Of a stretch of 64,000 nucleotides of DNA, positions 6,812-45,533 are shown in pieces. The position numbers and the translations under genes are program-made. Under the pieces are notes generated by a model. The model saw only the letters and a program-made list of their open reading frames with translations. It had not been told where the DNA came from and ran no database searches. Origin of the DNA: an uncultured Planctomycetota bacterium. GTDB taxonomy: Bacteria; Planctomycetota; Planctomycetia; Pirellulales; Pirellulaceae. How positions within the stretch are numbered: the first letter of the stretch is position 1; each line of letters starts with the position of its first letter. The stretch spans positions 586,178-650,177 of the forward strand of contig CAVOYC010000005.1 in the NCBI GenBank assembly GCA_963700575.1. The letters are read 5' to 3'.

Positions 6812-6976
6812 TTCCTTCTTCCCTCCCTCCTCTGCAATCCGCCCAAGCGTGACCTATTTCGGCGGCCGGGCTTCCACGGCTGGTCGCACTACGACCTGTA
6901 CAAAGGAGGCCGAGTGGACTAGGCTTGCCAATAGCGCGGGACCGTGAACCGTCAGAGCCCCCCCGATGAGGCGAAA

Positions 6977-7303
6977 ATGAACGCCAAGACACTGGCCAAG
7001 TACGAACTGCGGGCGAAAATCATCAAGGCGCTGGCTCATCCGGCCCGCTTGGCCATGATGGACGAACTGATTGCGCACGGGGAACGGTGCGTGTGCGAAC
7101 TCACCGAACTGGTCGGCACCGACATGTCAACCGTCTCCAGACATCTGGCTCAGATGAAAGCAGCCGGCTTGGTCGAGGACGAAAAACGGGGCCGGATGAT
7201 CTACTATCGTCCCCGCGTGAAATGCCTGGCCAACTTCTTCGGCTGCATCGAGTCCGTCATCCAGTCGCACGTCGCCGACCAGCAGGATCTGTTGACCTTG
7301 TAA
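6977..7303 (+). CDS. arsR: ArsR/SmtB-family metalloregulator
   Basis: MNAKTLAKYELRAKIIKALAHPARLAMMDELIAHGERCVCELTELVGTDMSTVSRHLAQMKAAGLVEDEKRGRMIYYRPR. It has a winged HTH and the CVC metal(loid)-binding motif of As(III)-sensing ArsR. GAGG lies 8 nt upstream of the ATG at 6977. The ORF track starts at an upstream in-frame GTG at 6944. Confidence 0.8.
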   Translation: MNAKTLAKYELRAKIIKALAHPARLAMMDELIAHGERCVCELTELVGTDMSTVSRHLAQMKAAGLVEDEKRGRMIYYRPRVKCLANFFGCIESVIQSHVADQQDLLTL

Positions 7304-7422
7304 GGCGACCCGAGAACGGGATGACCGGCGTGTGCACCGCCATCAACTTGCTTCGCGCGCGCCGCAGACGTGCCTTAAGCCGCCAGACTCGACATGCCGA
7401 CCCATCCTCCGAGCTCGTTGCA

Positions 7423-8274
7423 TCATCTGGGTGCATGCATCGGGACCGCCAACTGTTGGCGTATCAACTGTGGTCGATTGGTAGTAATGGAGTCGATGCC
7501 GAGCTGCTGGAAATAACGGGCATCTTGGGGATCGTCAATCGTCCACACGTGCAGTTCGTATCCGGCTTGGCGAATGGCCTGGACAAACGGCTCGTTGACC
7601 ACTTCCCGATTCGCATTGGTGTCGAGCCCGTCCGCGCCGCTGCTGTGCAAGGTGGCCAGGATTTCATCACGTTTCGGCAACCAGCGCCCCGTCGCTTTGT
7701 CCTGCTTGAAGCCTGTCAGCCAGTATGCCTTGACGGCGGGGAGCTGTTTTTTTACGGCGCGGATGACGCTCTCCTGAAACGAGATCACCACTGTCTGAGC
7801 AGGTTGCAGCTGTGAGCCGTCCAATGCCAGTTTCAATTTGGGAACAATCTCGGGACCACACTTGATTTCGATGAAGATCAGCTTACCCTCGGGCACCGTG
7901 GCCAGGACTTCTTGGATCGTGGGGATCCGCTCACCACGGTACTTGGGCGACTTCCAGGTACCCACATCCAGCCGGCGGAGTTCCTCAAGCGTGCTCTCGG
8001 CCACCACGTGTTTGACGCCGGCAGTCCGCTGCGTGTTGTCATCATGGATGGTTACGATGTGGCCGTCGCGTGTCAGATAGAAATCTCCTTCGATGGCGTC
8101 CGCGCCCAACTGCCACGCCAGCTGGAAGGCGGAAAGTGTATTTTCGGGGGCCGCGTCGGACGCGCCTCGATGAGCGACAATCCACTGCGCCTGGGCCGGC
8201 GGGTGGCCGGCCGTGAGCAGAACTGCCGTGGCGGTTAGAGCCAGAAAAGGCAGCAGCCGATGCGGTCGATTCAT
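7423..8274 (-). CDS. glycerophosphodiester phosphodiesterase (GDPD/UgpQ-like), secreted
   Basis: MNRPHRLLPFLALTATAVLLTAGHPPAQAQWIVAHRGASDAAPENTLSAFQLAWQLGADAIEGDFYLTRDGHIVTIHDDNTQRT... HRG and E.D active-site motifs of GDPD. Signal peptide. GGGAGG RBS lies 6 nt before the ATG at 8274. The longer 7423..8577 ORF in the track is an upstream in-frame extension. Confidence 0.85.
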   Translation of the reverse strand: MNRPHRLLPFLALTATAVLLTAGHPPAQAQWIVAHRGASDAAPENTLSAFQLAWQLGADAIEGDFYLTRDGHIVTIHDDNTQRTAGVKHVVAESTLEELRRLDVGTWKSPKYRGERIPTIQEVLATVPEGKLIFIEIKCGPEIVPKLKLALDGSQLQPAQTVVISFQESVIRAVKKQLPAVKAYWLTGFKQDKATGRWLPKRDEILATLHSSGADGLDTNANREVVNEPFVQAIRQAGYELHVWTIDDPQDARYFQQLGIDSITTNRPQLIRQQLAVPMHAPR

Positions 8275-8829
8275 GGTATGCCTCCCGTAATGACGCGACG
8301 AGGCTGGGCCTCGAACCGATGCAAGCTGCCGTGGGGCTGGAACGAACCGTTCCCGTTCGCCACTCAATACTGGCTCAAAGCACTCGGATCTGGGTCCACT
8401 CGTTGGTTGTTTCCGTACCGGCGATTGGAGCAAACGTTGACTCGAAGTGCAACTGGACTGACTCACTATTGCAGCTCGCACACAGGCCGTCCGGCAGTGA
8501 CTTGTTGTGTGAGCGAGTGGCACGAACGGCCGCCAAGCGACCGGCGGAACATCACTTGCCCCCAGCAGCTGCGGCATTCTGCCGCAGAGCGGCGGCTGGA
8601 AGCCGCCGCCACGGAGAGCAAGTTGCCTGTCAGTCGCCCCATTTCATCGTCGCTGGCCCGTGGGGGCCGAAGCAGAGCTCTTGGATGCCCCCTTTTCAAT
8701 ACAGCCATTTCGGGCGATCTGGGCTTTCCGTGAGGGGCCGCTTGTAGTAAAGGATGCGGGTAGCATCATGCGCTGCGCTGGATCGGCAACAATGTGACAG
8801 CGTTTTTTTGACTGTACGAAAGGATTGTG

Positions 8830-9548: not shown

Positions 9549-11147
9549 CTATTCGTCCACCGGAGCCTTTTCAAAATCGGTCGGGCTGACCCAGCCGGCG
9601 TTGAGTTTCTCGCCGTCCATATAGCGCTCATAGAAGTGGGCTTGCCGGGCGTCGGCGTAAGGGAAGTTGTCGAAAACTGCACCTTGTCCCGACATGCGCG
9701 GATCGTCCTGTCTTTTCAATTCCTGAAACAATTGGTCTCTGAGTAACGTCTTCACGGACTGGTATTCAGAATTGTCGGATAAATTGGTCATGCATTCTGG
9801 ATCGATGCCAATGTTGAACAGTTCTTCCTGGCCTCGCTTGCCGAAAGCCAGTTGCCAGAACTTCGGTGAAGTGCCTTGACGACGCATGACCAGGATCTCG
9901 GTCTTGGTGGGACTGCCATCGCAGTTCAAATAGCCGGTTTCAGGGTTTCCTGCGGGCCACCTGGAAACCTCGAAGTTGTGCAAGTAGAGCATGCCATTCT
10001 TGACGATCCCGCGAATCGGATAGCCCGCATCATGTGGACGCCCGATATCGTGCCGTTCTTTGCCAATCAGGACATGATCTCGCTCGGGGTTCACCTGACC
10101 CGATTGGGTGGCATAGAAGATATCCGTCAGGCTCCTGCCGGCCGCGGGCTGCATGCCCGACTGATTCCAGCTGAGCCCGGCCAATTCGATAAAGGTCGGC
10201 GCGAAATCAATGAAGCTGACGGAGTCGTCGATCGTCCGACCCGGGTTCTTGATTCCTTGGGGCCACATGATGGCCAGTGGCAAGTGATTGGACAATTCGT
10301 ATTCCTGACCTTTGACGCGTGGAAAAGGCATGCCGTTGTCCGCGGTCACCACCACCAGCGTATTATCAAGCTGATGGTGCTGGTCGAGTAATTTCAGCAT
10401 GCGGTCCAGGTGCTGGTCAAAATGCTCGACTTCGAACGCGTAGTCGAGCATATCGTTGCGCACCACCTCATTGTCGGGCCAGAACGCCGGCACCTTGGTG
10501 ACCTGATCGATAGACTTGTGGCCTTTGGCCACGCCAGATCCGTACTCGTATCCCCGGTGAGGCTCTAGACAGCCGTACCAGAAACACCAAGGCTCGCCCT
10601 CGGGAGCAGACCGCAGGAAATCAGCAAAGTTGCCCGCGTAGTCATTGCCGGAGATTCCACGCGCGGGCGGCTGGGACTTCTGACGGTTAAACGGCTGGCC
10701 GGCTAGTTGTCTCGGTTTGCCTTCCGCATCCTGGGCGATTCCGGGAGCCCAGCCTTTTGCCGTCATACCCACAAAGTACCCGTGTTCGGCGAGCGCTTCG
10801 GCGTAGCTCTTGAATTCCGGCGGGAAGTACGGAATGTGATTGGCTGCCGCCTTCAATTGCCATGAATTGCGTCCGGTCAAGATACAAGCACGCGAAGGAG
10901 CACATTTCGCATTGGGTGTGTAGGCTCGCGTGAACAGCAATCCTTCACGAGCCACGCGATCAAAGGCAGGTGTTTTTACCCAATCGCAGCCATAGGCGCC
11001 CATGTACGGATACGAGGCGTCGTCGGCGATACAAAACAGGATGTTGGGGCGACCGGCGATGTCGGAATCCGCCGCGCGCGACACGCTTAACGGGCAACAC
11101 AAGAACAGCGTATACAGGAGGACCAGCACAACTCCGTTCCGCGACAT
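9549..11147 (-). CDS. formylglycine-dependent sulfatase (arylsulfatase family), secreted
   Basis: The sequence ...[59 protein letters not shown] contains the C-x-P-S-R sulfatase signature. Signal peptide [34 protein letters not shown] before the ATG at 11147. Confidence 0.9.
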
Positions 11148-11216
11148 GGGCGTTCCTTTCGTATAGACGAAGACCATTCTCCCACCGATTGAAGTGCGGG
11201 CCGCACTCCAGGCTAT

Positions 11217-12987: not shown

Positions 12988-14256
12988 TTAATTCCGCTTG
13001 ATCAGAACGTCGGTCTCGTATTTCTTCACCTGCTCCAGCCACGCGGCCCCGACGGGAACGCCGCTGCGCAAGCAGTAGTAATCCCACACCGGTCCGACCG
13101 GCATCGTCTTCAGCTCTTCCTGCATGGCCAGTCGCGACGTGAAATCACCGCTCAATTCAAAGGCTCGCATTTTGTCGGATGGCTCGAGCAGTGCCATCAA
13201 CAGGGCCCTGATCATGCACCGTGTACCAATCACCCACGCCGCCACCCGGTTGATGCTGGCATCGAAAAAGTCCAGCCCGAGATGAACTCGCGAGAGACCG
13301 TTGCGGACGATTTCCTGCGCGATCGCCTTCAGCTCGTCGGTCAGTGTGACCACGTGGTCGCTGTCCCAACGCACACCGCGACTGACATGCAACAGAATCT
13401 CGTCCAAGTACAATAAGACGGACGAGATCTTGTCCGAAATCACTTCCGTGGGATGAAAGTGACCAGCATCCAGGCACAGTAACTTCTGCCGACTGATGGC
13501 GTATCCGAGATAGAACTCGTGTGAACCCACGACATAACTCTCGGAACCAATGCCAAACAACTTGGCTTCCACGGCATCCAGGTTGTATTGGGGGTCCAAT
13601 GGCTCGGCGAAGATCGCGTCGAGCGATTCTGCCAATCGCACACGCGGGCCCTGACGATCAACCGGCGTGTCTTTGTAGCCGTCCGGAATCCAGACATTGG
13701 TCACACAAGGCGTCCCGAGTGCTTCACCGATGGCCGCGCCGATCTTCCGGCAGACGATGCCGTGTTCCACCCAGAACCGACGGATCGAGGGATCCTGGTG
13801 TGCGAGAGTGAAGCCGTCCGCCGCTTGCGGGTGGGAGAAAAAGGTGGGGTTGAAGTCGACACCAAGCTGTTTCTCTCGCGCCCATTCGATCCAGCTCTGG
13901 AAGTGCGCCGGCTGCAACTCGTTACGCTCCACGCGCGGCCCGCCCGTCTCGGCATAACTGGCGTGCAGGTTCATCCGATGCCGTCCCGGAATGACCGCCA
14001 GAGCCATCTCGAAATCCGCCCGCAATTCGTCTGGTGTGCGAGCCTTCCCCAGGTAGTTGCCGGTTACCGCCAGACCACCCCCCAGTTCGTCTCCCGTTTG
14101 CTCAAACCCGCCCACATCGTCGCCTTGCCAACAGTGCAGCGAAATCGGAATCGCAGATAGCACCTCCAGGGCTCGGTCAACGTCCACGCCGATGTCCGCA
14201 TACTGCTGCTTTGCCAGCTCATACGCCTGTTCCGTTCGCTCACTCTTGCTGGGCAT
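12988..14256 (-). CDS. rhaA: L-rhamnose isomerase
   Basis: The 422-aa product is collinear with E. coli RhaA along its whole length ([52 protein letters not shown]). Confidence 0.95.
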
Positions 14257-34059: not shown

Positions 34060-34150
34060 GGGCACCGTCCTGGATGCGGGTGAGGGGGTGTGCGGGTGAG
34101 GGGGTGAGGGGGTGATGGGGAGTGTGGGGAGGGGGTGAGGGGATGTGAGG
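34060..34150. repeat. G-rich imperfect tandem repeats (GGGTGAGGGG units; C-rich on the minus strand)
   Basis: gcgggtgagggggtgtgcgggtgagggggtgagggggtgatggggagtgtggggagggggtgaggggatgtgagg contains more than 8 G-runs of 3 or more. It sits between the OMP stop codon (34506) and the nfeD start (33936). Confidence 0.7.
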
Positions 34151-38230: not shown

Positions 38231-40063
38231 ATGATTTACCGAAATTTGAGGCAATGCGTGACCGATTTGGAGCGGGCGGGCCACCTGGTGCGTTTGCCGG
38301 ACGAAGTCAGTGCCACACTCGAAGCGGCGGAGATCCAGCGTCGTGTCTACCGGAGCGGCGGTCCGGCCATTCTGTTTGAGAACGTGGCGGGATGCCGTTT
38401 CCCGATGGTCTCGAACCTGTTTGGAAGCGTTGAACGCGCTCGGTTCATGTTTCGCGAGACTTGGGAGCATGTGCGGCGGTTGATTGAACTGAAGATGGAC
38501 CCCAATCAGTTCTGGCTCCATCCAAGCCGCTATTTGCGGTCGATACCCACCGCGCTGCACATGCGTCCTCGACGCCGTTCGCACGGGCCCGTGTTGGAAT
38601 GCGAGCTGACGATCGATCAGCTTCCCCAACTGAAATCGTGGCCTGACGATGGAGGTGCTTTCGTCACTTTGCCTCAGGTGTATACGGAAGACTTGGCGCG
38701 TGGAGGTCTGCAGCACTCCAATTTGGGAATGTACCGCGTGCAGCTCTCTGGGGGACAGTACATCACCAACAGCGAAGTCGGACTCCACTACCAGTTGCAT
38801 CGCGGCATCGGCGTGCATCACGCGCAAGCGGTACAGCAGGGAACGTCGCTGCGCGTCAACATATTTGTGGGAGGCACGCCGGCCATGACTCTGGCGGCCG
38901 TAATGCCATTGCCGGAAGGCATGTCGGAACTGACCTTCGCGGGCGCCCTGGCGGGACACCGAATTCCCATGGCCTGCCGAAATGGATGCTTGCCCGTCTA
39001 CAGCGAGGCGGATTTCTGTATCCACGGTTCGATCGACCCCCAACGCCTCCTTCCCGAAGGGCCGTTTGGCGACCATTTGGGGTATTACAGTCTGGCACAC
39101 GAGTTTCCCTGCCTGCGTGTGCAGCGCGTCACGTGCCGCAAGAATGCAATTTGGCCGTTTACCGTGGTTGGCCGTCCACCGCAAGAGGATACCGTCTTTG
39201 GACAGCTGATCCACGAGTTGACTGGGCCGATCATTCCCACGGTGATCCCCGGGGTGCACGCAGTGCATGCCGTTGATGCCGCCGGCGTTCATCCCCTTCT
39301 GCTGGCCATTGGCAGTGAACGGTACGTACCGTACGAGGCTACGCGCATGCCGCGAGAATTGCTGACACAGTCCAACGCCATTCTCGGGCAAGGTCAGATG
39401 TCGCTGGCCAAGTACCTGTTGATCGTTGATCGCCACGACGATCCTCGGTTAGACATCCATGACGTCGAGGCCTTCCTGCGCCATCTGCTGTGCCGTATCG
39501 ATTGGACTCGCGACGCTCACTTCCAGACTCGAACCACCATGGACACACTCGATTACAGCGGATCGGCAATCAACGAAGGATCCAAGGTCGTCATGGCCGC
39601 CGCCGGAAACCCTCGCCGGGCACTCCCGACAGAGTTACCGGCGGACTTGCAGCTGCCCCCTGGGTTCGATGCACCCACGATGTGTCTTCCGGGAGTGCTG
39701 GCGATCCAAGGACCGACCTACGGCAGCGAAGGGGAATCCGCGCTGGCTCGCTTTTGCGGCGCGTACAGCGATCAACGTGTACTCAACCGTTTTCCTTTGA
39801 TCGTGATCGTGGACGACAGCGAATTCACGGCCAGAAGGCTGGACAACTTTTTGTGGGTGGTTTTCACGCGCAGCGATCCGGCCACGGACATCGACGGGAT
39901 TGGAGCGCTGCAGCAACGCAAGCACTGGGGATGCCGCGGAGCGCTGGTGATCGACGCGCGGATTAAACCGCGGCATGCGCCACCGCTGGTGGAAGATCCC
40001 CAGGTTACCCGCAAGATCGATGCGCTCGCGTCACGCGGTGGTCCCCTGGCCCGATTCTTGTAG
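38231..40063 (+). CDS. UbiD-family (prenylated-FMN-dependent) decarboxylase
   Basis: 610 aa. MIYRNLRQCVTDLERAGHLVRL...PAILFENVAGCRFPMVSNLFGS...GGAFVTLPQVYTEDL... is collinear with UbiD/MqnL-type decarboxylases. AAGGGA RBS. Confidence 0.85.
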   Translation: MIYRNLRQCVTDLERAGHLVRLPDEVSATLEAAEIQRRVYRSGGPAILFENVAGCRFPMVSNLFGSVERARFMFRETWEHVRRLIELKMDPNQFWLHPSRYLRSIPTALHMRPRRRSHGPVLECELTIDQLPQLKSWPDDGGAFVTLPQVYTEDLARGGLQHSNLGMYRVQLSGGQYITNSEVGLHYQLHRGIGVHHAQAVQQGTSLRVNIFVGGTPAMTLAAVMPLPEGMSELTFAGALAGHRIPMACRNGCLPVYSEADFCIHGSIDPQRLLPEGPFGDHLGYYSLAHEFPCLRVQRVTCRKNAIWPFTVVGRPPQEDTVFGQLIHELTGPIIPTVIPGVHAVHAVDAAGVHPLLLAIGSERYVPYEATRMPRELLTQSNAILGQGQMSLAKYLLIVDRHDDPRLDIHDVEAFLRHLLCRIDWTRDAHFQTRTTMDTLDYSGSAINEGSKVVMAAAGNPRRALPTELPADLQLPPGFDAPTMCLPGVLAIQGPTYGSEGESALARFCGAYSDQRVLNRFPLIVIVDDSEFTARRLDNFLWVVFTRSDPATDIDGIGALQQRKHWGCRGALVIDARIKPRHAPPLVEDPQVTRKIDALASRGGPLARFL

Positions 40064-40308
40064 TTCCGGGCACACAGTGCTGCGATATCGCCAAGCTTGT
40101 TGGTCTGGTAACGGATGAGCGACAGACGTTCGGCAGGCCCAGGCCCGTCTCCACCGAGCGGTAGCTCGTCGATGGATGCGGCCCAGCCGCCGCCCCGTTC
40201 TCTAGCCAACAGGTCCGGTTTCATTCATAATCCGAATGGTCCGGCAACAGGTAGTTTTCAGGGTCACCGTTACGCGGCGATCACTCGCAAGCTCTGGTCC
40301 CATTGACA

Positions 40309-42213
40309 ATGCTCTCGGCTTTCAGTTCTAACGATCTTATCTTGCATCTTCCGGATGTCATGCGGGTATTTGTCGCCGTGTGGTTGTTCGCTGTGGGAAG
40401 CTGTGTCGGCAGCTTTCTGAATGTCGTGGTACTGAGAATGCCGGCCGGAATGAGTATCGCTCGCATCGGTTCGCGCTGTCCGGTCTGCCTGCACTCCATA
40501 CGTTGGTACGACAACATCCCGATCATCAGTTGGCTGGTGCTGCGCGGACGTTGTCGTGATTGTGGCACGCCGATCTCGATTCGCTATCCGCTGGTCGAAC
40601 TTCTGTTGGCCTGCGTCTTTCTGCTGCTGGGCCTGCGCGAGGGGCTGGCCGGTGGGCACAATTTGCCGTTGCCGCCGGACGCACCCCGTTACTTCATCCG
40701 GACTGGGTGGGAGACCTGGTCTCTCTACACTTTCCAGATCATAGCGATCGTCGTCCTGATTGGGGCGGCACTGATCGAGCGGGATGGGAAGCCCGTCCCG
40801 CGACGCATCTTCGTTGCGCCGCTATTAGTCGGCCTTGTCGCTCCCCTGTGGCTGCCGTTCCTGTACCCCGTGGCGGCCATTCGTGAGGCGGCGAGTGTGC
40901 GCTTCTGGAGTGGGCCCACAGCCGCGCTGCTGGGCCTGCTCACCGGTGGCTTGATGGGCCTCGCCGCGTGGCCGGCCAGCAGCGGTCAGCCGCGGCGTCC
41001 CGGAGCTGGACTGACGGCTCTGATGGCTTCTTGTCTGGTGGGGCTGTATCTCGGCTGGCAGGCGGCGGGGCCACTCCTGCTTGCAGTGTCGACGATCTTT
41101 CTCGGTGCTTCCGTACTCGCTTGCCTGCCCAAGTGGACAGGTCGTGGCGGCTGGTGCATGTATCTGGCGGTGGGGTTGTTCGTGTACATCATGTTTTGGC
41201 GCGAACTGGCCGATCGGATACCGATGCTGGCGATCGAAGCCTCAGTCGGGCAGGTTCTGGGGTCCGCGGTGCTGGTGCTGCTTGTTGCGTTGACGACTCG
41301 GTGGTTCACACCGGCTCGGGAATTCGTCCGAACTGAGAAGGGGGAGGTAGGTGGCATGAAACCGATCGATCGCGAGAAGAATCTGCAACGGATTCTGGAA
41401 TCGCAAAGCTATTTGCCCGTTGAGTACGACGCGGAGTTTTTGCGACAAGGGGAAACGCGCCCAGTGCGTGTGCAGTTGGAATTGCTGAAACCCGAGATCG
41501 CACTGTTGCAGCAAGGCGTCAGCTCGACGGTCGTCGTTTTCGGCGGTACGCAGGTGGTGGAAAGGGAGGAGGCGGAACGCAAATTAAACAGAGCGTGCGA
41601 GGCCCTGCGGCAATCGCCCGACGACCCGCTCTGCCAGCGGGCAGTCCGACGGCTGGAACGGATCGTCGCCAAGTCGCGCTACTATGACGCCGCCCGTGCA
41701 TTTGGGAAACTCGTTTCCTCCAACTGCCAGATTGACGGAAAATGCGATTATGTCGTGACGACCGGCGGAGGGCCGGGGATCATGGAAGCGGCCAATCGGG
41801 GAGCTTACGACGTCGGCGCTAAATCAATCGGCTTGAACATCACTCTGCCCGCTGAGCAGACGCCTAACCCGTACATCACGCCGCAGCTCTGTTTCCAGTT
41901 CCATTATTTCGCGTTGCGGAAGATGCATTTTCTGCTGCGGGCCAAGGCGATGGTCGTCTTTCCAGGTGGGTTTGGCACTCTGGATGAGCTATTTGACGCC
42001 CTCACGCTGCGGCAGACAAAGCGGATGCAGGACATCCCCATCATCCTGTTCGGCAAGGAATTCTGGCAGCGCGTGATCGATTTCCAATTCCTGGCTGATG
42101 AGGGGGTGGTGGCGGACCGAGATCTGGAGTTATTCAGCTTCGTTGAAACGCCCGAAGAAGCGTGGTCGATCATTACGACTTTCCACCGGCAAGGTGAGGG
42201 GGTGAGCGGGTGA
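40309..42213 (+). CDS. fusion protein: prepilin-peptidase (A24/PilD)-like membrane domain (likely inactive) joined to a LOG-family (TIGR00730, PpnN-like) domain
   Basis: N-terminal part: [67 protein letters not shown] (tetra-Cys PilD N-domain) followed by about 8 TM segments. The first Asp motif is retained (ALIERDGKP). Where the GGGDVKL motif is expected the sequence reads [10 protein letters not shown]-terminal part: VVVFGGTQ...[16 protein letters not shown]...[19 protein letters not shown], i.e. the GGGxGxM and PGGxGTxxE LOG motifs. It is one uninterrupted ORF. The first ATG is at 40309 and a PilD-like start [14 protein letters not shown] lies at 40360. Confidence 0.7.
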
Positions 42214-42647: not shown

Positions 42648-45533
42648 ATGTCAAATCTCGTGCCACGGCGGACGTGGTGGATGGTTGGGTGGCTGGGGGT
42701 CTCGCTCGTCAGCATCGCCTGCCTGCTGGGAGGGTGTGGCAAGTCGGACGACGGCGGCCAGCAATCTCAGAAGGCGAAATTCGAGGTGGCTGACGATGAA
42801 CAGGCCGACTCCACAGGCGCTAGTCAGCGGGCAGCCCGTAAGATGTCCGCCGAAGCGGGCAACTTGGGATCCGGACTCGGTGGTGGTTCGGCGGCGGGTC
42901 AGCCGGCGCAGCCTCCGAGCATGTCGATCAGTCAGCTGGAAAATCTCACCGTACCCGATGGTACACCGCAAGAGCTGATCGCTTTCATCAACCAGATCGG
43001 CCAGAAGATCATGATGGTTCAGGCCGAACTGCAAGGGCAGCCGCAGTCGGTCGTACAGGCACGAAACCAGGAGTTGCTGGAGGCGGTACTGCAAGCAGCG
43101 GACAAGATCCTGGCCTCCGGTGAGGCGGATCAGGACCAGCGCAAGAGAGCGATTGACGTCAAGGCCGCCGCGCTGATGACGTTGGTTCAAATGTCTGGAG
43201 ACAGTCAATGGGTCGAGCAGATCAAGACCTTCGGCACAACGCTGTCCGCCGACAAAGATCCGGCGATCGTTGTCGAAGGTCGAGCGATACTGTTTGGGCT
43301 CACGATCAATGACCTGACGCAGAGGCGCAGCCAGGACGTCGATGCCGCGATGAGACAACTTGGTGCCTTGCTGCAAGTGAAACCGCAGACGGAAGTGGTA
43401 CTGCAAGTGTCTCTGCAAGCGGTCAAGGCATTGCGCGATCTTGGGCACGAAGACACCGCCCAAGAAGCCTTCAAGCAGATTGCGGCGGCATTCAAGGACA
43501 ACCCGGATCCCGGGTTGGCGGAAGAGGCGGAAAGGATGTCGGAACAACTGCTGTTCGTGGACTCCGACATGGACGCCAATTTTAATGCCGTGGTGGTGAA
43601 CCGGGAAGGAGCCGCCGACATCTTTCTCGCCGAATACGGGAAGCTGCTCGGACAGCCGAAACCGGGCTCTTTGACATTGCAGAAAGGAATTCGATACATC
43701 AGCGTATTGGAGCAGACGCAGCACTACGACCTGGCGCGAAAATTATGCGTCCTGATACACGATGCATACAACACGAGCCCGGATGAAAGGCTGAAGAACG
43801 CCGCTCAACAGGGGACGCAGGCGGCGCTCCGCCGCCTCGATCTGCTCGGAAAACCGCTGGTTGTGGACGCGACACGATTGGATGGGAGTTCTTTGGACTT
43901 CGCGGCTTACCAAGGGAAGGTCGTCCTGGTGGCTTTTTTCCAGTCGTTCGTTCCGCGTTGCCAGCAGGAGCTGATGAGCGTCAAGACTCAATATGAGAAG
44001 TACCACGAAAAGGGTTTGGAGGTCATTGCGGTCAGTCTGGATCCTGACCGTGAGATGTTGAATCGCTTTCTGGCCGATACGAGCCTTCCCTGGGTGACGG
44101 TCACCAACAACAAGTTGGCCGAGAAATGTGGCGTGGAGATGGTGCCGTTTTTCCTGCTCTTGGATCAGGAAGGCAAGGTGTCCGATATTTACGTGCAAGC
44201 GGCGTCACTCAGCGAGAGGTTGGCCAGATTATATGGGGTCACGGATTCCGCAACGCCTCCCGAACCAGAGACCAGTGGTGGAGCGGCCGACCAGTCGCAA
44301 AACCTGCGCCGCCGGCCACTCGGCAGCGGCGTTTCCAGGTTCGTTTTGGCGGGGCCTCTGGAACCTGACCGGCCGAAGGCCCTGGCGGCTGATTCGCGGC
44401 CACCGCGCAAGGAGGACGTGCCACCGCCGGACGCCCCGCCGTCGGAGCAGCAGCAGCAAGAAATAAACGCTGCTCCCACCGCAGCGGACGATGCGGAACT
44501 CGAGCGGGCCGAAGCGCTAGTGAATCCCTATCTGCCGCGTCCCGGGCTTTCTGAGTTTGAGCTGATCAACTTCCTGTTTGACATGCAGGAGAAATCAACG
44601 AGCATTCGGCGGCGACCTGGGTTTACCGACGCGATGGTGGAGGCGGCGGATCGCGTGTTGGCCACCAGCACGGAAGACCGGTACCAGCTGATCGCGGCAG
44701 AAGCGAAATTCACCGCCTTGCATGAGATGGCCTGTCGGGGAAGCGAAGATGCCGATCGACAATTGGCCACGTTCGTCGCTGCCATGGTGGATGACAAACG
44801 ACCCGAGATAGTCCGTCGCGTGAAGTTCCTGCAGCTCGAATCCCGCGCGATCGGAGCAGATCAGCTACAGTTGACGGAAATCCCCTCTCTTTTACAGGAC
44901 CTGCGTCTGTTCCTCGAAGCAGAGCCGAAGCTGAAAAATCGTCATCTGCGTTTGGCCTCAGCCACCGTACACGCCATCAATCGATTGCCCGACGAAGCGC
45001 AGCGCGAGGGTTACTTCGCGGAGTTTGGCAAATTGTTTTCCAACAGCAAAGATCGGCAGCTGGCACGCTATGGCGAAAAATTGATCGGCAGCGGCAAAGG
45101 GCAAGTCAGTGACCTGGTCGGCCAGCCGTTGGAGCTGCAAGGGATCACCGACATGGGAACAGAGTTCGACTGGAGCAGCTACCGGGGAAAAGTCGTACTG
45201 GTCGACTTCTGGGCTACCTGGTGTGGCCCTTGTCTACGCGAACTGCCACAAGTTCGCGCCCTTCATGAGCGACACGCGGCAGACGGTTTTGAGGTGGTGG
45301 CCGTGAGTTTGGATGAAGATCTGGAGGTACTCGCCAAGTACCTGGAGGAAAACAAAGTACCTTGGTCGAATCTGATCGGCAAAGAGGCGTCCAACCTGGC
45401 AACAAAGTATGGTGTGCGCGGCATCCCGACCATGATACTCGTCGATCCCACTGGTCAGGTTGTCGCGGTGGGCCAAAAAGTGGAAACACTCGAGCCACAG
45501 ATCCAGGAACTCCTGGAGATCGCGAGCAAGTGA
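42648..45533 (+). CDS. large lipoprotein with tandem TlpA-like thioredoxin-fold domains (one degenerate, one with WCGPC)
   Basis: Lipobox MSNLVPRRTWWMVGWLGVSLVSIACLLGGC. About 650 aa of helical region. Domain 1 is GKVVLVAFFQSFVPRCQQEL... (the CxxC motif degenerated to SFVPRC). A Pro-rich linker follows. Domain 2 is GKVVLVDFWATWCGPCLRELPQVRALHERHAADGFEVVAVSLDED...GIPTMILVD. GGAG RBS. Confidence 0.75.
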   Translation: MSNLVPRRTWWMVGWLGVSLVSIACLLGGCGKSDDGGQQSQKAKFEVADDEQADSTGASQRAARKMSAEAGNLGSGLGGGSAAGQPAQPPSMSISQLENLTVPDGTPQELIAFINQIGQKIMMVQAELQGQPQSVVQARNQELLEAVLQAADKILASGEADQDQRKRAIDVKAAALMTLVQMSGDSQWVEQIKTFGTTLSADKDPAIVVEGRAILFGLTINDLTQRRSQDVDAAMRQLGALLQVKPQTEVVLQVSLQAVKALRDLGHEDTAQEAFKQIAAAFKDNPDPGLAEEAERMSEQLLFVDSDMDANFNAVVVNREGAADIFLAEYGKLLGQPKPGSLTLQKGIRYISVLEQTQHYDLARKLCVLIHDAYNTSPDERLKNAAQQGTQAALRRLDLLGKPLVVDATRLDGSSLDFAAYQGKVVLVAFFQSFVPRCQQELMSVKTQYEKYHEKGLEVIAVSLDPDREMLNRFLADTSLPWVTVTNNKLAEKCGVEMVPFFLLLDQEGKVSDIYVQAASLSERLARLYGVTDSATPPEPETSGGAADQSQNLRRRPLGSGVSRFVLAGPLEPDRPKALAADSRPPRKEDVPPPDAPPSEQQQQEINAAPTAADDAELERAEALVNPYLPRPGLSEFELINFLFDMQEKSTSIRRRPGFTDAMVEAADRVLATSTEDRYQLIAAEAKFTALHEMACRGSEDADRQLATFVAAMVDDKRPEIVRRVKFLQLESRAIGADQLQLTEIPSLLQDLRLFLEAEPKLKNRHLRLASATVHAINRLPDEAQREGYFAEFGKLFSNSKDRQLARYGEKLIGSGKGQVSDLVGQPLELQGITDMGTEFDWSSYRGKVVLVDFWATWCGPCLRELPQVRALHERHAADGFEVVAVSLDEDLEVLAKYLEENKVPWSNLIGKEASNLATKYGVRGIPTMILVDPTGQVVAVGQKVETLEPQIQELLEIASK

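Follow-up and report, generated by a model that had tools for sequence, protein, structure and literature searches.

What use would a bacterium have for a protein that carries, in one chain, the membrane domain of a prepilin peptidase and a nucleotide-hydrolysing domain of the LOG family? The question is raised by one gene in a 64,000-nucleotide stretch of DNA (the window) from an uncultured planctomycete of the Pirellulaceae (order Pirellulales; GenBank assembly GCA_963700575.1, contig CAVOYC010000005.1, positions 586,178 to 650,177 of the forward strand), in which a preliminary description, made from the letters alone, had noticed a PilD-like half joined to a LOG half. We find that the fusion is a real, conserved combination of known parts. 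Its membrane half is predicted to descend from PilD but to have ceased to be a protease, with other residues (Glu157 and Ala237) at both catalytic Asp columns. The reading that we favour, with a confidence that only somewhat exceeds our doubts, is that a membrane partner, PilD-like but non-proteolytic, would tether a LOG phosphoribohydrolase and possibly regulate it, and that a free LOG isoform would also arise from an internal start.

A fused gene and its two-gene relatives

The gene is a single uninterrupted open reading frame (ORF) on the plus strand of the window, ending in a TGA stop at 42211-42213 according to the ORF list. When read from the alternative TTG start at 40303, two codons upstream of the ATG at 40309, it has the 636 amino acids (aa) of the preliminary description. 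The two peptidase-motif strings and the two LOG signature peptides quoted there are found in the translation as given, ALIERDGKP at aa 154-162, GAGLTALMA at aa 232-240 and the LOG signatures at aa 486-499 and aa 552-565. In Pfam, aa 29-108 match A24_N_bact (E 6e-33) and aa 492-620 match Lysine_decarbox/LOG (E 1.4e-29), and there is a further match to the SLOG cluster4 family.

Such a chain could be an assembly or sequencing artefact uniting two neighbouring genes, and relatives with two separate genes do exist. We consider the chance of this negligible. Searching 5.8 billion proteins gave 273 matches, and 117 of the best 120, which were examined, are 600-700 aa long, have the identical Pfam architecture and share 44-68% identity with the query. 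These at least 117 members are protein clusters at 90% identity from Pirellulales metagenome genomes, drawn from NCBI, ENA, JGI and Logan assemblies, and the architecture PF06750 plus PF18306/PF03641 is common to them down to 44% identity. The exact protein sequence of the window is absent from the searched collection. The fusion in the window is thus real and no artefact because (i) at least 117 divergent clusters show the fusion in frame and (ii) it was checked in DNA at seven fused loci (the window, L001-L004, L171 and L172). It had been called unprecedented, which is wrong for the databases: homologues that bear a name at NCBI and JGI are already labelled 'TIGR00730 family' or 'MAG: prepilin peptidase [Pirellulaceae bacterium]'. 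In the literature, full-text searches turned up no paper on the fusion or on A24 pseudo-peptidases.

The PilD-like half and LOG are a conserved two-part module of the Pirellulales, fused here, because in some relatives the halves are separate genes that overlap or adjoin each other (Table 1). A stop codon between the domains, which the preliminary description had feared as a sign of two adjacent genes, is accordingly true of some relatives, where it reflects a genuine two-gene arrangement, but it points to no error in the window. A profile search of 1.84 billion representatives retrieved many proteins that span the whole degenerate membrane domain, with lengths peaking at 300-400 aa, so that the pseudo-peptidase family is broader than the fusion, although not all of these library representatives are demonstrable stand-alone genes in the absence of their DNA. 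Among the seven that were looked up, P0242 was verified as a split whose LOG gene overlaps, P0244 resembles a fusion broken by a frameshift in a long-read assembly, P0243 is followed by an unrelated XisH gene, and P0247 and P0256 stop at or near contig ends. A metagenome scan with the membrane-domain alignment recovered mostly canonical PilD genes, with about ten family loci among the matches listed, many of them on short contigs.

The split loci show some peculiarities of their own. In L006 (5956-6330) a 124-aa mini-gene consists of transmembrane helix (TM) 1, the Cys4 zinc finger and TM2; the peptidase core has been lost and the adjacency to LOG retained. In L007 a VapC (PIN) toxin-type gene (6923-7585) stands between the membrane gene and LOG, and the membrane gene is frameshifted, possibly through an assembly error. 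A short tandem repeat separates the two genes in L011 (6860-7000), one frame of it reading PTPNFQLPTPNFQLP. An SDR gene follows LOG in two loci (L006 7327-8169; L003 9994-10770), its best match being a pteridine reductase, below cutoff.

The PilD-like membrane half

The tetra-Cys PilD N-domain, recognized from the outset, is confirmed and has been preserved almost intact: PF06750 (A24_N, four-Cys) scores 113 bits against a cutoff of 23, C57, C60, C82 and C85 are invariant in 55 aligned sequences, and they correspond to PilD C72/C75/C97/C100 with an identical CxxC-X21-CxxC spacing. Besides the invariant residues of TM1 (Table 1), P45, R92-Y93-P94 and E97 are invariant in this N-terminal part. 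The core behind it is another matter. PF01478 (Peptidase_A24) has no match in this protein at E<10, with or without the N-domain, and matches just 2 of 55 family members, weakly (best E 0.0036). Since PF01478 gave nothing, homology of the core was shown through hhalign and a fold search. The family membrane-domain alignment matches Pseudomonas PilD with 99.9% probability over aa 29-292, and the core alone, with the N-domain cut from both sides, still does so in an unchanged register (84% probability, E 8e-6); the PilD reference consisted of Pseudomonas database proteins with PF01478 and PF06750, retrieved with a PilD query. The membrane model has the GxGD-protease membrane fold, its best fold match in the PDB being FlaK; a PDB sequence search with the family profile gave LOG structures only and no A24 structure.

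In PilD, D149 and D213 have been experimentally validated as catalytic, and D151A is neutral (bioRxiv 10.1101/2025.07.10.664072). By hhalign and by two MAFFT alignments, without gaps, PilD I148-D149-A-D151-HQLL-P156 aligns with I156-E157-R-D159-GKPV-P164, so that the first catalytic column holds Glu157 here and PilD D151 corresponds to Asp159. The first catalytic Asp had been thought to be kept; the Asp that is retained is this Asp159, the counterpart of D151 and not of catalytic D149. Around the second site, PilD G-Y-G-D213...G-G-W-Q227 aligns with A237...G249-W250-Q251, the register being held by conserved G245 and G249-W250-Q251. The second Asp is lost, as had been noticed, but profile and multiple alignments put Ala237 in its column and not Leu235. 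Across 118 family members, position 157 is Arg in 44, Glu in 31 and Asp in 23, position 159 is Asp in 107 and position 164 is Pro in 110. None of the 118 has Asp at both catalytic columns, and the 147 representatives taken from the 1.84-billion-protein library all lack a GxGD-K motif. A subclade of 34 of the 118 members combines Arg157 and Asp159 with Glu237, so that a Glu occupies the column of the GxGD Asp and the conserved Asp159 is present as well.

The suspicion that the peptidase domain is catalytically dead is thus borne out by Glu157 and Ala237. Three defining features of A24 peptidases were tested and failed, namely the PF01478 match, the first catalytic Asp and the second; the protein is not an A24 peptidase functionally but a structural descendant of these enzymes. 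Could it still be a protease by means of an unusual acidic pair, say one in which Glu157 or Asp159 joins another residue? Conservation of Asp159 reaches 91%, and 54 of the 118 members have an acidic residue at position 157, yet aa 226-244 of this protein, where the second catalytic residue would be expected, contain no acidic residue, the PilD counterpart of Asp159 is dispensable, and the catalytic columns show no co-variation that would preserve a pair. We regard such an activity as highly improbable. The 'prepilin peptidase' label in public records is almost certainly wrong for the activity of these proteins, and the mislabelling could inflate counts of pilus and secretion machineries in planctomycete genomes.

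If not for proteolysis, why is the membrane half kept? Mean pairwise identity across the family is 55% both for TM1 (aa 16-43) and for the zinc-finger loop with TM2 (aa 44-112), 30% for the A24 core TM3-TM8 (aa 113-303), 20% for TM9 (aa 304-333), 18% for the linker (aa 334-360), 62% for the N-terminal extension of LOG (aa 361-475) and 79% for the LOG core (aa 476-625). The zinc-finger domain is, moreover, up to 64% identical to genuine PilD N-domains. As judged from these alignments, TM1 and the cytoplasmic Cys4 zinc-finger domain are under strong constraint. This bears on the proposal, made early on, that the PilD-derived half is simply a membrane anchor. On such a reading, selection would act on no more than the placing of LOG at the inner membrane, and the zinc finger would be conserved for folding alone. 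The core, TM9 and linker evolve fast (18-30% identity), and L006 has lost the whole core while retaining TM1, zinc finger and TM2 beside its LOG gene, both of which would suit a mere anchor. A single hydrophobic helix would suffice for that purpose, however, and yet the zinc finger is about 55% identical across the family and up to 64% identical to that of genuine PilD; in the split species LOG has no covalent anchor, yet it stays beside the membrane gene. The anchor is a possible explanation, but it leaves the identity of the zinc finger unexplained while other membrane regions drift to 20-30%, and we hold it to be unlikely.

The Cys4 domain of PilD binds zinc and is required for N-methylation, not for cleavage (PMC3584216), and here it is the best-conserved membrane-proximal part. 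The protein might then be a methyltransferase-only PilD paralogue, whose Cys4 domain N-methylates pilin-like proteins cleaved by a canonical PilD while LOG serves a linked nucleotide function. A Gly and a basic residue before the third Cys are usually retained (consensus LRGRCRDC), and in one split locus (L165, 1688-4567, minus strand) two prepilin-type genes (PF07963 N_methyl plus PF07596 SBP_bac_10/DUF1559) lie divergently upstream of the split pair. Such genes are, however, so numerous in planctomycete genomes that this single adjacency means little and may be due to chance. In addition, no S-adenosylmethionine (SAM)-binding site is defined in PilD, the window is without pilus or secretion genes, and LOG enzymes use 5'-phosphorylated nucleotides, not S-adenosylhomocysteine (PMC5379747). 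We consider this explanation improbable. Hydrolysis of S-adenosylhomocysteine or another SAM by-product, as a link between LOG and a methyltransferase domain, was likewise examined and is unsupported, the LOG motif binding a 5'-phosphate (PMC5379747).

The LOG half, its tether and a probable internal start

The C-terminal half apparently is a type-II LOG with all catalytic motifs intact, and the LOG-family assignment of the preliminary description is borne out both by Pfam and by the invariance of the motifs. PF03641 scores 103 bits (cutoff 27) and NCBIfam TIGR00730 93.9 bits, slightly short of the 96.35 required, and the domain has the LOG Rossmann-like fold with an extra N-terminal helix. 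G486-G487-G488-P489-G490...M492 and R537-K538 are invariant and both align to PDB entries 5zi9 and 1wek. In the LOG-II of Corynebacterium glutamicum, Arg155 and Glu178 are catalytic, and an Asp before the Glu marks type II (PMC5379747). One prenyl-pocket Phe of this enzyme (F153 of Cg1261) aligns with invariant Ala535, and the substrate preference may differ because of this replacement. From its motifs, the LOG half is predicted to be an active nucleoside 5'-monophosphate phosphoribohydrolase that would cleave the base-ribose bond.

Other identities were considered for this half. PpnN (E. coli YgdH-type) was rejected, the PpnN equivalog model NF038390 scoring 26 bits over the LOG core only, far under its cutoff of 450; PDB PpnN entries match at E 0.007. 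An anti-phage role as a SLOG/LOG effector was also dropped, as there was no PADLOC match at E<0.01. The domain might instead be a ligand sensor, like SLOG in ThsA or TRPM channels, that controls the activity of the membrane domain and is not an enzyme; we give this very little weight. Stand-alone homologues of aa ~350-630, about 265-295 aa long and with the N-terminal extension included, occur at 46-64% identity in Proteobacteria, Cyanobacteria, Nitrospirota, Verrucomicrobiota and other phyla, and also in a Pirellulales genome (L005); at L005, the single stand-alone LOG locus inspected, there is no adjoining PilD-like gene.

How are the two halves connected? Eight hydrophobic helices had been counted, whereas the AlphaFold model has nine transmembrane helices; in the MAFFT alignment PilD ends before the ninth. 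Counts of Lys and Arg in the loops place the zinc finger, the D159 loop, the 226-232 loop, the 272-281 loop and the tail after TM9 on the cytoplasmic side. TM9 looks like a topological adaptor that would hold the LOG domain in the cytoplasm. The stretch that follows, between aa 333 and 365, varies from 24 to 69 aa in length across the family.

Within this variable linker one column stands out. At position 350, Met is found in 107 of 118 sequences and Val in 8, while no residue exceeds 50% in the adjacent columns, and the Val was encoded by GTG in both cases checked. Met350 coincides with the N-terminus of the split-form LOG proteins (L007 MPDPTDREKNLQ.., L086 MTERSDREKNLE..). Four of the 7 fused loci have a Shine-Dalgarno (SD) motif (GGAGG, AGGAG or AAGGA) at -16 to -5 of the internal start; the corresponding background in the window is 1.6% of positions. 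A free LOG isoform of about 285 aa is thus probably also made from the internal start.

We propose the following arrangement. The ninth TM helix and the flexible linker would hold LOG at the cytoplasmic face of the membrane, beside the zinc-finger domain, and the pseudo-peptidase would act as a docking or regulatory partner for LOG and not as a prepilin-acting enzyme, the docking perhaps running through the zinc finger. The internal ATG or GTG with its SD motif would yield free LOG beside the tethered form, and tethered and soluble LOG, if both are made, could mix in dimers or hexamers. Such an arrangement would give bacterial LOG enzymes a membrane setting, and the conserved internal start would make a clean case of one gene from which a tethered enzyme and a free one may both be produced. 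The family would also be a large, conserved group of bacterial GxGD pseudoproteases whose enzymatic partner is fixed; in eukaryotes, intramembrane proteases that are dead and have taken on other roles are well known (iRhoms, Derlins), and in the literature we found no description of a pseudoprotease derived from bacterial GxGD prepilin peptidases.

Several points weigh against the arrangement proposed here. The splits in L007, L011 and L168 were seen in assemblies of the long-read type, which often contain frameshift errors, and the more distant membrane-protein relatives L091 and L093 have no LOG gene within 1.5-2.5 kb. The predicted template modelling score (pTM) of the full-length AlphaFold model is only 0.57, and the PilD profile was built from closely related Pseudomonas sequences only. 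The enrichment of SD motifs (binomial P about 2e-6) treats related loci as independent. The Glu found at the second catalytic column in 41 of 118 members may, with the conserved Asp159, allow residual or altered catalysis, and LOG activity and substrate are read from motifs alone.

A more ambitious version makes the pseudo-peptidase a membrane receptor, its substrate-binding groove and zinc finger being kept so as to sense prepilin-type N-termini or thiol redox and to switch LOG. Uncleaved prepilin-type N-termini are very abundant in planctomycetes, and the thiol-redox state could be relayed by the recurrent periplasmic thioredoxin-like neighbours described below; the switched LOG would then alter nucleotide pools or release a purine-base signal. 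We judge this distinctly unlikely. Were it true, a dead intramembrane protease and a nucleotide N-glycosidase would together make a new bacterial signalling module, with tethered and free LOG isoforms from one gene.

Genomic setting and comparison with known systems

Table 1. Features of the fusion locus in the window, and arrangement of the module in relatives with separate genes
Feature	Position	Strand	Basis or description
Whole ORF	40309..42213	+	634 aa + stop from ATG 40309: PilD-like pseudo-peptidase, linker, type-II LOG
TM1, aa 16-43	40354..40437	+	AlphaFold helices; invariant G30, G34-S35-F36, N38-V39, R43
Cys4 zinc-finger motif CPVC-X21-CRDC, cytoplasmic loop	40477..40563	+	PF06750 E 6e-33; invariant Cys
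Degenerate A24 peptidase core, TM3-TM8, aa 133-303	40705..41217	+	PF01478 not matched
First active-site remnant, I156-E157-R158-D159-GKPV-P164	40774..40800	+	hhalign, MAFFT, gap-free register
Ala237 at GxGD catalytic Asp column (PilD D213)	41017..41019	+	hhalign, MAFFT; family E41/P32/A17, otherwise variable
TM9, aa 313-333, extra C-terminal helix	41245..41307	+	AlphaFold; no PilD counterpart
Disordered hypervariable linker, aa 334-349	41308..41355	+	predicted local distance difference test (pLDDT) <50 at aa 339-353; identity 18%
Shine-Dalgarno-like GGGGGAGG	41340..41347	+	ends 8 nt before internal ATG
Internal ATG, Met350, probable free-LOG start	41356..41358	+	conserved column in variable linker
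LOG module, aa 350-634: N-terminal helical extension and apparent type-II LOG Rossmann-like domain	41356..42210	+	
GGGxGxM-type nucleotide-binding motif, aa 486-499	41764..41805	+	invariant; aligned to 5zi9, 1wek
Arg537 of 'RK' motif	41917..41919	+	invariant R537-K538; corresponds to catalytic Arg155 of C. glutamicum LOG-II
PGGFGTLDE, aa 552-560, type-II Asp559 and catalytic Glu560	41962..41988	+	invariant; identical in C. glutamicum LOG-II
Tandem repeat GGTGAGCG x 4.8, 8-bp period, across stop codon	42193..42230	+	TRF
UbiD-family decarboxylase, 610 aa from likely ATG, upstream neighbour	38231..40063	+	NCBIfam TIGR00148
961-aa predicted lipoprotein, TlpA/ResA-like thioredoxin domains, downstream neighbour	42648..45533	+	NCBIfam ResA, TlpA matches
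L165 / L166, two independent assemblies			373-aa membrane gene overlaps 289-aa LOG gene by 32 nt
L089			membrane and LOG genes overlap
L006			UbiD, 124-aa A24_N-only gene, LOG, SDR gene, TlpA-like gene, in that order
L011			membrane gene without TM9, tandem repeat, then LOG and TlpA-like gene
L007			membrane gene, VapC insertion, then LOG
L088			LOG one gene away from membrane gene
L168			split arrangement

A coupling of the fusion protein to a pilus or secretion platform, which the preliminary description had entertained, finds no support in its surroundings. No pilus or secretion genes lie near the fusion gene in the window; its neighbours are, in order, an M17 aminopeptidase (minus strand), the UbiD-family decarboxylase, the fusion itself and the 961-aa lipoprotein with thioredoxin-fold domains (all plus strand). 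UbiD directly upstream of the module also occurs in P0001, P0022, P0036, L006, L007, L168 and L169, and in P0036 the UbiD stop abuts the start of the fusion gene. The UbiD of the window scores 249.5 bits with TIGR00148 (cutoff 244.85), and its best hit is mena_SCO4490, at 359 bits under the cutoff of 495.9. The mena_SCO4490 model stands for the menaquinone decarboxylase of the futalosine pathway. A futalosine or menaquinone role was not adopted, the UbiD being below this cutoff and the adjacency absent in several subclades; the close LOG homologues in many phyla, in which the pathway was left unchecked, are a further reason.

Redoxin genes equivalent to the lipoprotein gene are found, likewise downstream, in P0001, P0022, L011, L006 and L168. 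Another subclade has instead, 5 nt upstream of the fusion, a thioredoxin of 136-150 aa that carries a lipoprotein signal (L002 7585-7995; L171 2543-2995). A thioredoxin-fold gene adjoins the module in 8 of 12 tallied contexts, counted, like the other neighbour associations, as plain adjacency, for which shared synteny could account. It is possible that these neighbours are linked to the Cys4 zinc site or to reported effects of LOG in oxidative stress.

The array over the stop codon, first described as made of heptamers, does exist, but according to TRF its unit is 8 bp long and not 7. Since this length is not divisible by 3, the TGA contained in the unit falls in all three frames over successive copies. 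The GGTGAGCG repeat has at least four G3 runs with a spacing like that of a G-quadruplex motif. A second G-rich 8-bp array of the GGTGAGCG / GGTGAGGG type lies at about 34079-34150; arrays of this type gave 7 pattern matches where 0.11 were expected, and their G3-5 runs, 5 nt apart, fit a G-quadruplex motif. Elsewhere in the window, genes for a glycerophosphodiester phosphodiesterase (7426-8577), a sulfatase (9552-11177) and an L-rhamnose isomerase (12991-14256), all on the minus strand, are catabolic genes of a kind ordinary in planctomycetes, and nothing apparent links them to the fusion.

Among known systems, PilD/XcpA (MEROPS A24A; PilD of P. aeruginosa) shares with the membrane half a TM1 followed by the cytoplasmic CxxC-X21-CxxC zinc finger (A24_N_bact), the order of helices through TM8, the I-x-x-D-x4-P and G-x3-G-W-Q landmarks and an hhalign probability of 99.9%. 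It differs in that the protein described here has E157 and A237 at the catalytic Asp columns, leaves PF01478 unmatched, adds TM9 and a C-terminal LOG, and has no pilus or type II secretion genes near it. The preflagellin peptidase FlaK (PDB 3S0X), a solved GxGD membrane protease, is only 11% identical in sequence to the membrane half; it is without a zinc-finger domain and retains both Asp residues.

The LOG half was compared with the type-II LOGs of C. glutamicum (Cg1261, 5WQ3), Thermus thermophilus (TT1465, 1WEK) and Neisseria meningitidis (YgdH, 9US2). An identical PGGFGTLDE, the catalytic Arg and Glu, the type-II Asp and an N-terminal helical extension are shared, whereas the extension is longer here (about 130 aa), F153 of the Corynebacterium enzyme is Ala535, and the known enzymes are soluble hexamers while the LOG described here is predicted to be tethered to a nine-helix membrane protein. 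The stand-alone 'long' LOGs (about 265-295 aa, TIGR00730 label) begin where Met350 lies and are not fused to a PilD-like gene. BpLOG of Bordetella pertussis (BP1253) is type-II-like too, and a non-cytoplasmic or membrane-associated location has been proposed for it from a putative TM helix (PMC6864091); it has at most this one helix, lacks a PilD-like domain and, in purified form, is a soluble dimer. The iRhoms and Derlins belong to the rhomboid serine protease clan and are eukaryotic, which makes of them an analogy only, but they too are dead intramembrane-protease scaffolds that have been kept for a non-proteolytic role and fitted with added domains (PMC6451368).

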